Below are positions 18,548 through 21,913 of a stretch of 64,000 bases of DNA, one piece after another (the first letter of the stretch is position 1; each line of letters starts with the position of its first letter). The position numbers were made by a program, and so were the translations under genes. This DNA comes from an uncultured Gammaproteobacteria bacterium (GTDB lineage Bacteria; Patescibacteriota; Microgenomatia; Woykebacterales; RBG-16-39-9b), in the NCBI GenBank assembly GCA_965231125.1, contig OZ246414.1, forward strand, positions 384,137 through 448,136, read 5' to 3'. Under the pieces are notes generated by a model that was not told the origin of the DNA, did not search any database, and was given only the letters and a program-made list of their open reading frames with translations.

Positions 18548-18571
18548 AGTGTGTACCTTACCTAAAAGTAC

Positions 18572-19576
18572 CTACGGACTCGGTGTTGCAGCGGGCGCGG
18601 GGGCTGGTAACGAGTTCGAAGGGATTGGCAGCACCGGAGCATTTGCACCACCAAGGTTGATGATGCAGTTGACGCCGGCAGACTTGCTGCACTTGTCGAT
18701 GGCATCTAGAAGCGCAAGCCACCATCCCGCATCAGGCCCATAGAGAGCGATCGCGTTTTGGAGTCGCTGCTCATTTTGGGTTTTCTGGCCTTCAGTGTTC
18801 TGATTCGGGTTAACTGGAGCCGCCTGGACGTCGTCGACCTCAATGCGGACCGGTGAGCAGGTGAACTTTCCATTGCCGGGCTCGTCTGGGTTGCTCCAGG
18901 TGGAGTTGCCGGAGCCGCAGAACAAATCCTCAGGGAATCCAAGGCTTGCCCGCACTGCATCGACAAAGGCTTCAGACATCTTGTCGGCGAGAAGCTTGTA
19001 CTGCTCAGGGCTGTGCTTATCCCAGATGGTATCATCCACCTCGATCGCGGCTTTCCTCGCAGCAGCGTCCATTGCAGGTGAGAAGTTTTCTCCCAGCATG
19101 CCGTTCCACCCCTCAGTGGAGAAGTTTGCATCTCCACCTGAGTCGGAACCAGCACACTTGTACTTGAAGCAGACAGTGTAGAAGTCGCGCATCGCCTTTT
19201 CGTCCTCGTTGAGAGTCCAGAGGGCTCGTGCGGCAATGGTGATATTGACCCCACCTGAGGTGGTAGCGGTAATCAGCGTATGGCGGTCACCTACTTGGTG
19301 TCCGTTGGCATCGACCACGCTGCCGTCGTTGATGATGTAGTTCCGGCTGTTGCACGGAACATAGGAGACTTTTTCGCTATTTCCCACATTGGTCTTCTGA
19401 CCAGGGAAAACGATCCGGTGCAGTTTCGCGTCGTGGTCCTGTGAACCGTCACCAACCACGAAGGCGCAACTGGCGATTGTGGTGGCAGTGTTGGTTTCGC
19501 AGGCGATGAGTAGTAGGGCTGTGATAGCGAACAGAGCCGCTATCGACATGCCGAACCGATTCCGTGACCTAAGCAT
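18572..19576 (-). CDS. Lipoprotein of unknown function (island gene 3)
   Basis: The signal peptide MLRSRNRFGMSIAALFAITALLLIAC ends in the lipobox LLIAC. The Shine-Dalgarno aggagg sits 6 nt upstream of the ATG at 19576. The mature ~300-aa protein is Cys-containing and Gly/Asp/Asn-rich. I recognised no family. Confidence 0.6.
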   Translation of the reverse strand: MLRSRNRFGMSIAALFAITALLLIACETNTATTIASCAFVVGDGSQDHDAKLHRIVFPGQKTNVGNSEKVSYVPCNSRNYIINDGSVVDANGHQVGDRHTLITATTSGGVNITIAARALWTLNEDEKAMRDFYTVCFKYKCAGSDSGGDANFSTEGWNGMLGENFSPAMDAAARKAAIEVDDTIWDKHSPEQYKLLADKMSEAFVDAVRASLGFPEDLFCGSGNSTWSNPDEPGNGKFTCSPVRIEVDDVQAAPVNPNQNTEGQKTQNEQRLQNAIALYGPDAGWWLALLDAIDKCSKSAGVNCIINLGGANAPVLPIPSNSLPAPAPAATPSP

Positions 19577-20873
19577 GATCTTCCTCCTGACTAGAATGGC
19601 TGCTTGAAGGCAGCGCGGCGGACGGAACGGAATGGGCGATTTCCAGCGGAGATTCTGCTTCTCGGGCAACTGCCAGGACTTGGTCGAGTTGCGCCTCATT
19701 CACCCTCCCGGTTGCGTCATTGAAAGCTTGCCTACCGGAAAGGATTGCCTGTTCGAGTTCTGCCCGTTTCTGCCGGCCCAACTCAAGCGCTTGGATAATT
19801 CCATCCGCCTGAGTTTCAAAAGACTGGACAACCGCTGCCACAGTACGGGGGTCAAGAGGCGGTGTCTCAAGCGATCTGGTTATCTCAGGTACAACGACGC
19901 TTGCGGCGTCGTAGTACGTAGTCAGTGCTTCGTTGAGGAGGTCTTCCACGGCCTGGGTGACCTGTTGTGCCTGTTCGGCTTCTCCCAGAGCGATCCATTG
20001 CACAAAGACTCCCTTAGTGGATGGGATCGCTACGGCTTCGGCCATGTCAATGCGAAGCGATAGACCAACATCGAGTTTGCGCATAAGGCGAATTTGTGGC
20101 GCCGATGACCAGGCAAGAAAGAGTCGAACCTTGAAGTAGGCGATCTTGTTTTCAAGAAGAGAGACAAGATCAGCTAGCTCGGACTTTCGCTCCCCACCAC
20201 GGTCACCCGCATTGGCGTCACCTACTGGGATGGCTTCCGCTTTTTCAGCCGCTCGATCGCGGGCGATCTCCATGATGGCGATAACATATATCAGGTTGCC
20301 GAGTTCCTTCTCGTTAAGGTCATAGAGGGTGTCGAAGTAGGACACGTTTCTCAGGACCAGCTGCTGCTTGCCGTTAAGTCTCTCTTCGGCCCAATCGAAC
20401 GTCTTGTCCATGGAACGTACATCGTCCATGAGCTCCTCGAGGAAAGTTTTGCCAAGGTGGAAAAAGCCGAGAAGACGTCCTCTGACGTTTTCATACTTCT
20501 CTCGGTTTTTGGGCTGGCTTGGGTCGTACTTCCGCCCAATGTCGCGAATTCTCCGTTTGAACTGTTTCATGATGTCTTCCAGCTCTGACATATCTTCCGG
20601 GTGATGCTCGCGCAGCATTTTGTCATTCAAATCGTTAACGCCTTTTAGAGCATCATTTCCGTAAACAGCCAGAACCTGCGTGTTGGACAGCATATCCTGT
20701 AACACCTTGGTAGCTTCTGCTTCTGCTCTTTGACGAGTTTCACCAAGCAGAAGATCCTTGCAGCTGAGTCGCTGTCGTGTCTCTGATGATGTGGACAGAG
20801 CAGAAAGCTCTGTTACCTGATTGGTCATTGGTGGTTCTTGTGGAACTTGGGCGGCGAATTGGTCAGTGGTCAT
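19569..20873 (-). CDS. TelA-like (toxic anion resistance family) protein, tentative (island gene 2)
   Basis: The 434-aa ORF is acidic, all-helical and lacks TM segments. Its ~390-aa core follows a ~40-aa low-complexity N-terminus. The length and charge pattern, and the region ...WSSAPQIRLMRKLDVGLSLRID..., resemble the TelA/KlaB family. I assign it from memory only. Confidence 0.35.
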   Translation of the reverse strand: MTTDQFAAQVPQEPPMTNQVTELSALSTSSETRQRLSCKDLLLGETRQRAEAEATKVLQDMLSNTQVLAVYGNDALKGVNDLNDKMLREHHPEDMSELEDIMKQFKRRIRDIGRKYDPSQPKNREKYENVRGRLLGFFHLGKTFLEELMDDVRSMDKTFDWAEERLNGKQQLVLRNVSYFDTLYDLNEKELGNLIYVIAIMEIARDRAAEKAEAIPVGDANAGDRGGERKSELADLVSLLENKIAYFKVRLFLAWSSAPQIRLMRKLDVGLSLRIDMAEAVAIPSTKGVFVQWIALGEAEQAQQVTQAVEDLLNEALTTYYDAASVVVPEITRSLETPPLDPRTVAAVVQSFETQADGIIQALELGRQKRAELEQAILSGRQAFNDATGRVNEAQLDQVLAVAREAESPLEIAHSVPSAALPSSSHSSQEEDHA

Positions 20874-21913
20874 GTTTCTCCTCCTTTACTTGTGCTACTT
20901 CGATAGCGCTGAGCCTGTAGGATGTTGGTGTTGACCTTGTACTCGGTCAAATCGACGGTATTGTCGTGTCTGATCCGATCAAGAACGTACTGGGAGAAGT
21001 CGACAATCGATGCCCCACCTCTCTCTAGTTCAGCTCTTGCGTCTTCGTAATAGTACTCGTTTTGCTGTATATCGAGGTAACTGGTGAGGACGTCAGAGAC
21101 TTCAGTCAAACGATCCCTAAAGAAGAGAGCGTCGCTTTTCTTGTCCTTGCTGGTTTTCGCAAAGTACCTCTCGATGTGCAAGCACATTTGGTACAGCGTA
21201 TCCTTGAGACTTGCGTCGTGGATCTGATCGCGTTCTTTTGCGATTTTTGCTAATAGGTCTTTGACTTGGTCAGGAGCCTTAAAGTGAGTTCTTCTCGTGC
21301 TTGTTGGAGTCACCATGCTGCGGATCGTAAGCAATGCAATGCAAACGACCCAAAAGCCAACGACGGCAATAACTATCCACCAAAGCCAAGACAAACCCCC
21401 CTCCTCAGTTGAATCAAGCGGTGGAGGCTTTGGCGTTGGTGTTGGCAGTGGGTTTTCACTTTCCCAGAGGTGTATGTTTTGTGCGAACGTGCCCAGCGCT
21501 GTTATTGGATCGTTAGAGACACTTCTTGCGCGCCTCATTTGATCAGCAGCGACACCCGCAGGTAGGATTGGTGCATATCCGACCACATTGTTGCCAACGG
21601 CAAGCCCGATAATTCGCTGGTCTCCCAGCTCTTTGGACAAAGCAGTTGCAATTGTTGGGATATCCACTCCGAGTTTTGCTTCGGCCGCAGCCGGTAGCAT
21701 GACCAAGACAATGTTGTCCTTTTTGTTCAGCCTGGTCTGCAACCTGCCAGCCGTGTCGTTGTCGGTTCCCTCAGTGCCCGGAGCCACGTAGACGGCCGCA
21801 TGTTGCAGCGCCTGCGCTGCGTCTGAAATGTAATCCCCGGCGGCGAGGATTGTGTTCGGTACTAAAAGTACCAGAACTATGACCAAAGCAGCCGCTTTAA
21901 CGATATACCTCAC
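20870..21913 (-). CDS. TPM-domain (TLP18.3/Psb32/MOLO-1-type) membrane protein with a cytoplasmic C-terminal domain (island gene 1)
   Basis: A signal peptide is followed by DYISDAAQAL..AVYVAPG...DNIVLVMLPAAAEAKLGVD...VGYAPILPAG, which fits TPM phosphatase-domain motifs. One TM helix follows (LSWLWWIVIAVVGFWVVCIALLTI), then a ~150-aa helical cytoplasmic domain. The start is GTG, with Shine-Dalgarno aggaggg. Confidence 0.5.
   Translation of the reverse strand: MRYIVKAAALVIVLVLLVPNTILAAGDYISDAAQALQHAAVYVAPGTEGTDNDTAGRLQTRLNKKDNIVLVMLPAAAEAKLGVDIPTIATALSKELGDQRIIGLAVGNNVVGYAPILPAGVAADQMRRARSVSNDPITALGTFAQNIHLWESENPLPTPTPKPPPLDSTEEGGLSWLWWIVIAVVGFWVVCIALLTIRSMVTPTSTRRTHFKAPDQVKDLLAKIAKERDQIHDASLKDTLYQMCLHIERYFAKTSKDKKSDALFFRDRLTEVSDVLTSYLDIQQNEYYYEDARAELERGGASIVDFSQYVLDRIRHDNTVDLTEYKVNTNILQAQRYRSSTSKGGET

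Follow-up and report, generated by a model that had tools for sequence, protein, structure and literature searches.

One important question raised by the 64-kb stretch of contig OZ246414.1 analysed here (hereafter the window) is whether a compact GC-rich island of three co-directional genes, named g1, g2 and g3 from the promoter-proximal end, was imported from a foreign donor, and what kind of system it encodes. The original prediction, made from the letters of the window, had described the island as a TPM-domain membrane protein, a TelA-like protein and a lipoprotein acquired from a high-GC organism such as an actinobacterium. The reading that we favour, with moderate confidence, is that the three genes make up an accessory envelope module characteristic of the candidate phyla radiation (CPR, Patescibacteria), which circulates laterally and consists of a g1-g3 core with an exchangeable TelA component.

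The compositional anomaly itself was readily confirmed. The coding sequences of the island (18572-21913) have a GC content of 0.532, versus 0.399 in the remainder of the window. Sliding windows of 400 nt gave values of 0.48-0.57 within the island and of 0.34-0.40 in the near flanks, with the transition located no more than ~50 nt from the outer ends of the coding sequences. Hence, the predicted GC jump is real and lies exactly over the three genes, although the estimate of 55-60% was somewhat high. Since both bordering spacers (18326-18571, with a GC content of 0.378, and the one between g1 and secA, with 0.379) are host-like, the shift coincides with the outer ends of the coding sequences. 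Outside the island, no 2-kb window exceeded 0.49 GC anywhere in the 64 kb. Far from showing a uniform profile, the island ranked first among the 3.4-kb windows in GC (z 3.2), in tetranucleotide distance (z 5.0) and in the GC-normalised dinucleotide relative abundance distance delta* (z 4.3), the runner-up compositional outlier being the cytochrome-oxidase region at 6.8-10.2 kb. The GC content at third codon positions (GC3) of g1, g2 and g3 was 0.54, 0.54 and 0.65, respectively, versus 0.364 +/- 0.059 in the 52 other open reading frames (ORFs). At four-fold degenerate sites of the island C accounted for 0.30 versus 0.18, and the values for NNC and NNG codons were 0.67 versus 0.32 and 0.54 versus 0.33. 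Codons ending in C and in G are both raised in the island, whereas C alone rises in secA, and the encoded proteins are rich in Ala and Arg and poor in Lys and Ile relative to the host. The highest GC3 outside the island (0.54) was found in a 142-aa ORF on the minus strand (11512-11940), which is not in the source annotation and may be spurious, a 128-aa gene on the opposite strand covering that position.

The three genes form a coupled operon, as had been proposed. The g1/g2 and g2/g3 overlaps are of 4 nt and 8 nt, respectively (Table 1), and an AGGAGG motif is located 6-9 nt 5' of each of the three start codons. The palindrome at 18512-18548, 24 nt past the g3 stop codon, has arms of 18 nt, is followed by UUUUUU on the coding strand and gave a fold z of -6.9 versus shuffled sequences; this palindrome is the intrinsic terminator of the operon. 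It had been described as resembling a tRNA T-arm, but neither a tRNA nor an Rfam match was obtained for it, and its interpretation as a tRNA remnant was rejected. On the g1 side the neighbour of the island is secA, from which it is separated by the expected spacer of about 320 bp (317 bp), whose GC content proved to be host-like and not unusually AT-rich. No sigma-70-type promoter consensus was found upstream of g1.

Predicted products of the three genes

The g2 product passed the Pfam TelA model (PF05816) with 74.5 bits against a cut-off of 30, which bears out its description as TelA-like. Residues 62-377 align to positions 10-319 of the 332 of the model, and the same family was recognised in 13/13 close g2 homologues. 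The protein also matched phrog_5890 and is 21-24% identical to the TelA proteins of Firmicutes; a sequence search of the PDB with TelA returned nothing. The translation contains no hydrophobic stretch, as expected of a soluble helical protein with neither signal peptide nor transmembrane (TM) segment, and judged from its sequence g2 is probably a soluble, cytoplasmic helical protein of the TelA family.

The g3 product carries, after a basic n-region and a hydrophobic h-region, the lipobox L23-I24-A25-C26, whose Cys26 is invariant in 48 homologues, in agreement with the lipoprotein originally proposed. Eight other cysteines are also invariant, and these fit an extracytoplasmic g3. The fold is that of an SPFH/Band-7 domain followed by helices, and Foldseek matched it to viral Band-7 proteins. 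The Pfam Band_7 model (PF01145) scored 13.3 bits for g3, below its cut-off of 23.6, and produced weak matches in 13/48 homologues (best E 3e-4); g3 also matched phrog_31970. In our reading g3 is an SPFH-fold lipoprotein, predicted to be tethered to the outer face of the membrane.

The AlphaFold2 model of g1, obtained from 51 homologues (pLDDT 85), comprises a signal helix, an alpha/beta domain (residues 28-153), a proline-rich linker, a TM helix (176-200) and a four-helix bundle (215-315). These elements correspond, in this order, to a Sec signal peptide, an extracytoplasmic TPM-fold domain, a single TM helix and a cytoplasmic four-helix XpaC-like domain. The cytoplasmic location of the C-terminus is deduced from the basic stretch (RSMVTPTSTRRTHFK) that follows the TM helix, according to the positive-inside rule. 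In this predicted topology g1 is a bitopic membrane protein, with the TPM-fold domain outside and the XpaC-like bundle inside. The TPM-domain membrane protein of the original prediction was thus supported as regards its fold and outward orientation, but not at the Pfam threshold: TPM_phosphatase (PF04536) did not match g1 at E <= 0.1 and was not among the families matched by the 51 homologues at E <= 1, and no Pfam match of any kind was obtained for g1.

The likeness of the g1 tail to XpaC is suggestive and not established. The corresponding Pfam family, PF10112 (Halogen_Hydrol/XpaC), did not match the g1 of the window itself, but sub-threshold matches were obtained in 12/51 homologues (best E 0.001), far above any other family. 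Three of these matches were checked individually; they reached 14.9-15.6 bits against a cut-off of 29.8 and were co-linear, protein residues ~200-320 aligning onto positions 67-187 of the 191 of the model. When the g1-tail profile was compared with five Firmicute XpaC proteins by hhalign, an E value of 0.003 was obtained in the same register, with a probability of only 10%. A word search identified 126 homologues of g1, and the family comprises 631 clusters at 50% identity among 1.84 billion representatives, with a nearly uniform length. An exhaustive hidden Markov model search with the g1 profile provided no bridge to XpaC or to canonical TPM proteins, since the 150 best matches were all full-length members of the family. 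The sequence search of the PDB with the g1 profile gave only noise, and tblastn of g1 against phages gave no match.

Distribution of the module and source of its GC richness

Homologous loci were located by scanning 185,579 species-representative genomes with g3 motifs, a pattern-based approach that could miss homologues at ~30% identity. The scan yielded 25 loci, all of them CPR-type (including a few evidently mislabelled metagenome-assembled genomes, MAGs). The named close homologues of the three proteins belong to Candidatus Levybacteria, Woesebacteria, Collierbacteria, WWE3 and Saccharibacteria, the remainder being unnamed metagenome contigs, and the closest relatives (56-76% identity) are all CPR-type. 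Proteins identical to those of the window were found, in the same arrangement, in a 915-kb contig and in two further assemblies. The module contigs L005, L006, L007, L010, L016 and L028 come from MAGs labelled as Gammaproteobacteria, Chloroflexota, Nanoarchaeia or Pseudomonadales, which is probably a matter of mis-binning or mislabelling; in the case of L007, the module and one adjacent gene recur in a Levybacteria genome (L008). A scan of metagenome contigs based on SecA found no SecA more than 58% identical to that of the window, and the module, the toxin-antitoxin pair and the hem genes were absent from the vicinity in all of the 80 loci that it provided.

The order g1-(TelA)-g3 is kept in the window and in 25/25 genome loci. 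TelA is present in the window and in 12 of these 25 loci (L009 is cut within TelA), and in ~12 loci g1 is directly followed by g3. The genes flanking the module differ between loci and no extra gene recurs across the 25. Trees of g1 and g3 separate Microgenomates from Saccharibacteria, with TelA-positive and TelA-negative forms interspersed. Three variant loci (L012, L013 and L027) keep the TPM-like part of g1 with its C-terminal domain replaced, and carry an unrelated helical protein of 433-438 aa that belongs to no Pfam family. In L013 a protein of this type lies between g1 and g3, exactly in the TelA slot. This co-variation of the g1 tail and the middle gene argues for an interaction between the tail and the middle protein, of which it is the best in-silico hint. 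In L012 and L013, the 433-aa substitute for TelA showed no detectable likeness to TelA itself by Pfam, BLASTP or hhalign (E 0.2).

Outside the CPR, the sole homologues of g3 (~30% identity) were those of Myrna-like mycobacteriophages and of a single IMG/VR contig of 152 kb. The TPM-like protein of phage ScoobyDoobyDoo aligned with the corresponding part of g1 (hhalign E 6e-8) and gp221 with g3 (E 2e-41), whereas the neighbour in the IMG/VR contig aligned with the TPM-like part of g1 with an E value of 2e-6. The members of both pairs are annotated merely as membrane or hypothetical proteins, and a DNA-level search of the island against phages detected nothing. Because a distant counterpart of the g1-g3 pair occurs outside the CPR as well, the TPM-like membrane protein and the SPFH-like lipoprotein constitute the conserved core, TelA being the exchangeable middle component.

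Module GC exceeded flank GC in 26/26 loci, by +0.02 to +0.19, the flanks ranging from 37% to 62% GC. By codon position, the mean excess was +0.19 at GC3 versus +0.04 at GC1 and GC2, and it was present at GC3 in 22/23 measurable loci. Since the excess appears whatever the GC content of the host, high GC characterises the whole module family and does not mark one recent import. This tells against the idea that the trio was recently acquired from an actinobacterium or another high-GC donor, which we now consider very improbable. Such an import would account for the position of the island as the strongest compositional outlier of the window, for an amino-acid usage resembling that of a high-GC genome, for its proximity to a toxin-antitoxin pair and for the fact that, outside the CPR, homologues occur only in mycobacteriophages and a high-GC viral contig. 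However, the close homologues (up to 76% identity) all come from CPR-type genomes or metagenomes, no actinobacterial locus was found among the representatives scanned, within the sensitivity of the pattern given above, and the phage proteins, which are the sole actinobacterial connection, are merely ~30% identical. In addition, the excess is seen in every host, those of 55-62% GC included, and CPR classes are separated in the trees of both g1 and g3.

More weight has to be given to vertical inheritance within the CPR, the high GC3 being maintained by a force specific to these genes (codon selection for expression, GC-biased gene conversion or synonymous constraint) and not being a sign of foreign origin. 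The GC3 excess in nearly all measurable loci, the correlation of module GC3 with flank GC3 (r 0.72), the broad agreement of the trees with taxonomy, the restriction of the raised GC to coding sequences between host-like spacers and the failure to find mobility genes are all in line with it. The only syntenic pair of loci (L007 and L008) is relevant here. Its module proteins are 74-87% identical with 57-62% identity at four-fold sites, versus 64% protein identity and 32% four-fold identity (i.e. saturation) in the adjacent shared gene. This contrast indicates that either the surroundings are older than the module, which would then have arrived by lateral replacement, or synonymous sites of the module are constrained; the latter would suit vertical descent. 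In L007, two ORFs located just upstream of the module (5730-6935) also show a raised GC3 (0.54-0.59). Nevertheless, G-ending as well as C-ending codons are enriched, unlike in secA, where only those ending in C are, and the amino-acid composition is shifted too. The module is found in only 25 species representatives with non-conserved neighbours, which points to an accessory, mobile gene set, and its TelA-positive and TelA-negative forms are interspersed in the trees. On balance, vertical inheritance is a rival to be taken seriously, but the less probable one.

The high GC is most likely explained by a GC-richer pool from which the module circulates laterally between CPR lineages, amelioration being incomplete. 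This is favoured because occurrence is patchy, location is variable, amino-acid usage is shifted and distant relatives exist in phages. As in an integrative element, the composition is atypical and the genomic position varies. Three observations weigh against lateral circulation. No integrase, att repeat or tRNA was found: as the original prediction had noted for integrases, no integrase or recombinase gene lies within 10 kb of the island, there is no tRNA that might serve as a target in the 64-kb window, and no direct repeats flank the island boundaries. In broad terms the phylogenies of g1 and g3 agree with the taxonomy of the hosts, and the GC content of the surrounding spacers is host-like. 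All of this would also suit genes that were inherited vertically and have a GC3 bias of their own.

Proposed function at the membrane

Two systems already known are assembled from the same components, which led us to propose a mechanism for the module. In E. faecium, daptomycin binding and the distribution of phospholipid microdomains are affected by XpaC and TelA (PMC6811118), and TelA has been taken to be a structural component lying beneath the membrane (PMC7824862). In B. subtilis, one operon links PspA to the TPM-domain membrane protein YdjH and a band-7 protein (PMC11237479), and according to another report (PMC8581546) the SPFH-domain protein is required for linking PspA to the membrane. 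By analogy, the g3 lipoprotein would oligomerise on the outer leaflet, as HflK/C-type SPFH proteins do, and would work together with the TPM ectodomain of g1 as an outer-face assembly. The single TM helix of g1 would couple this pair to the inner face, where the XpaC-like domain might bring TelA, or the helical protein that takes its place, to the inner leaflet. Under envelope stress, TelA may then stabilise lipid domains or rearrange them. In this scheme the module would join two pairs into one, the XpaC-TelA pair of Firmicutes and a TPM/SPFH pair comparable to that by which PspA is recruited in B. subtilis. The analysis showed the protein folds, a predicted topology, the linkage conserved between loci and the co-variation of tail with partner, whereas we infer the contacts, the oligomeric state and the physiological role from the related systems.

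Several points weigh against this scheme. The mechanism rests on domain analogies, TelA is missing from about half of the loci, and the Pfam TPM and Band_7 models stay below threshold on the window proteins. The XpaC assignment reaches at most 15.6 bits against a threshold of 29.8, with a low hhalign probability. Ring assembly by g3 is not assured, since the helices past its SPFH core do not reach the length of the coiled coils seen in cage-forming SPFH proteins. The envelope-stress or membrane-remodelling role put forward in the original prediction fits the domain content, and its suggestion of an undescribed accessory system agrees with the literature, in which no paper was found on a combined TPM/XpaC-like, TelA and SPFH-lipoprotein module.

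An anti-phage or superinfection-exclusion device acting at the membrane, as proposed for Ter/TelA and carried by phages to exclude competitors, was also considered and appears improbable. TelA is a component of Ter systems, for which a block on the entry of phages or xenobiotics has been proposed, and occurs in jumbo phages (PMC7824862), g2 and g3 match phage protein families (phrog_5890 and phrog_31970, respectively), and the pair formed by the N-terminal part of g1 and g3 is present in Myrna-like phages. The module adjoins a toxin-antitoxin pair and behaves as an accessory, compositionally atypical gene set. However, none of the three proteins matched a PADLOC-DB 2.0 family at E <= 0.1, neither TerB, TerC, TerD nor other defence genes lie nearby, and a defence-island context was seen in 0/25 loci. 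NCBIfam did not match g1, g2 or g3 either. A related proposal, that the g1-g3 pair with its exchangeable partner is a mobile trans-envelope cassette that passes between CPR bacteria and phages of their actinobacterial hosts, kept GC-rich by repeated transfer or recombination-driven GC bias and acting at the surface (e.g. in phage exclusion or at the epibiont-host interface of Saccharibacteria), seems to us unlikely.

In the CPR bacteria, which lead an epibiotic life with tiny genomes and an unusual envelope, few lineage-specific membrane systems have to our knowledge been defined so far. The accessory envelope module described here is a conserved and compact candidate for a trans-membrane device of envelope integrity, and it suggests a physical link between two poorly understood families, TelA/XpaC and TPM/SPFH. 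Being GC-richer than its host in every genome examined, it also offers a clean case in which to separate lateral flux from gene-specific GC bias in reduced genomes.

Surroundings of the island and comparison with known systems

Table 1. Location of the island genes, of their predicted domains and neighbouring features, and of the homologous loci discussed in the text (window positions unless a locus is named).
Feature	Location	Strand	Remarks
g1	20870..21913	-	347 aa, GTG start; ORF with AGGAGG
g1 residues 28-153, predicted TPM-fold alpha/beta ectodomain	21455..21832	-	
g1 residues 176-200, predicted TM helix	21314..21388	-	AlphaFold2 helix and sequence
g1 residues 215-315, predicted cytoplasmic helical bundle	20969..21271	-	weakly XpaC (Halogen_Hydrol)-like
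g2 (TelA)	19569..20873	-	434 aa; start overlaps g1 stop (ATGA)
g3 (lipoprotein, SPFH/Band-7 fold)	18572..19576	-	334 aa; start overlaps g2 stop (ATGCTTAG)
Operon terminator	18502..18548	-	hairpin with 18-bp arms, then U-run; fold z -6.9
Spacer, secA stop to g1 start	21914..22230	-	317 bp, GC 0.379; presumed promoter region
Toxin-antitoxin pair	17788-18370		Phd/YefM and RelE-fold toxin
Imperfect palindrome 5' of the toxin-antitoxin pair	18316-18367		23-nt arms; likely operator
aa3-type oxidase set and haem pathway	6350-17665		also in L111 12769-20865
ORFs resembling COX2 and COX1	6350-9303		two ORFs
Run of mostly same-strand ORFs	26400-58300		GC 0.34-0.40
Mycobacterium phage ScoobyDoobyDoo gp220-gp221	L001 4189-5912		TPM-like signal/TM protein and g3-family lipoprotein
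IMG/VR contig UViG_2825252539 (152 kb)	L030 9169-11858		TPM-like protein beside g3-family lipoprotein
Syntenic module pair	L007 7542-11716; L008 7591-11760		
Variant loci	L012 8887-12383; L013 7545-10960; L027 46-2808		g1 C-terminal domain replaced

Next to the terminator, the island adjoins the toxin-antitoxin pair, which had been assigned to the Phd/YefM-RelE type. The antitoxin passed the Phd/YefM model of Pfam (41.5 bits versus a threshold of 29.8), whereas the toxin gave RelE-fold matches (YafQ, YoeB, ParE) that were all sub-threshold. The two coding regions overlap by 11 nt. The imperfect palindrome located 5' of this pair overlaps a promoter-like site, TTGACA-17-TAGTAT, and is likely its autoregulatory operator.

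Two other regions of the window deserve mention. One combines an aa3-type oxidase set with a coproporphyrin-type haem pathway in a CPR-type genome. COX3, COX4_pro and UbiA/heme O synthase were recognised by precomputed Pfam matches, two ORFs upstream of them look like COX2 and COX1, and the haem genes comprise ALAD, HemC, HemD, URO-D, a chlorite-dismutase-like protein and ferrochelatase. The oxidase ORFs, with a GC3 of 0.50, are the second compositional outlier of the window. The other region is the long run of low-GC ORFs, the first of which carry Glycos_transf_2, Epimerase, CofD and GlmS-type domains (precomputed Pfam matches of an identical contig); it looks like a large cluster for surface polysaccharide or glycosylation.

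Among known systems, the Firmicute XpaC-TelA pair (xpaC-yaaN; B. subtilis, Listeria, S. aureus, E. faecium, Clostridium) resembles the module in that telA is directly preceded by the gene of a membrane-anchored protein whose helical domain is cytoplasmic, the order xpaC-then-telA being found in five Firmicute loci. This pair has been linked to tolerance of membrane-active antibiotics and to lipid microdomains (PMC6811118). Firmicute XpaC has no ectodomain, whereas in the module a secreted TPM domain and a single TM helix precede the XpaC-like part within one protein; the module also adds an SPFH lipoprotein, and its TelA is dispensable in about half of the loci. The pspA-ydjG-ydjH-ydjI operon of B. 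subtilis, judged from the domain descriptions in PMC11237479 and PMC8581546, similarly brings together a TPM membrane protein, an SPFH protein and a soluble helical protein that associates with the membrane. In the module, however, the helical protein is TelA and not PspA/ESCRT-III, the SPFH protein is predicted to be a Cys-rich lipoprotein of the outer face, and there is no zinc-ribbon protein of the YdjG type.

Compared with HflK/HflC, prohibitin, erlin, flotillin and QmcA, g3 is predicted to be lipid-anchored instead of TM-anchored and has shorter helices. It also has an extra beta element and eight invariant cysteines beyond the lipobox Cys, lacks an FtsH or NfeD partner and scores below the Pfam Band_7 threshold. 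The pair of Myrna and ScoobyDoobyDoo (gp220-gp221 in the latter) and that of UViG_2825252539 share with the module a TPM-like signal/TM protein adjoining a g3-family lipoprotein, but at ~30% identity and with neither the XpaC-like tail nor TelA, the order being inverted in UViG_2825252539. The Ter/kilA (klaA=telA) tellurite determinants have a TelA-family protein in common with the module; TerB, TerC, TerD, TerF and KlaB/TelB were not detected by Pfam in the neighbourhood of the island. A literal tellurite-resistance reading was rejected, the Ter partners being absent and nothing pointing to tellurite.

The module does not represent a new principle, since precedents exist for all of its components and for both pairings. 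As its function has only been inferred, what is new is the CPR-restricted fusion of the XpaC-TelA and TPM-SPFH themes, together with a GC3 excess that extends across the family.

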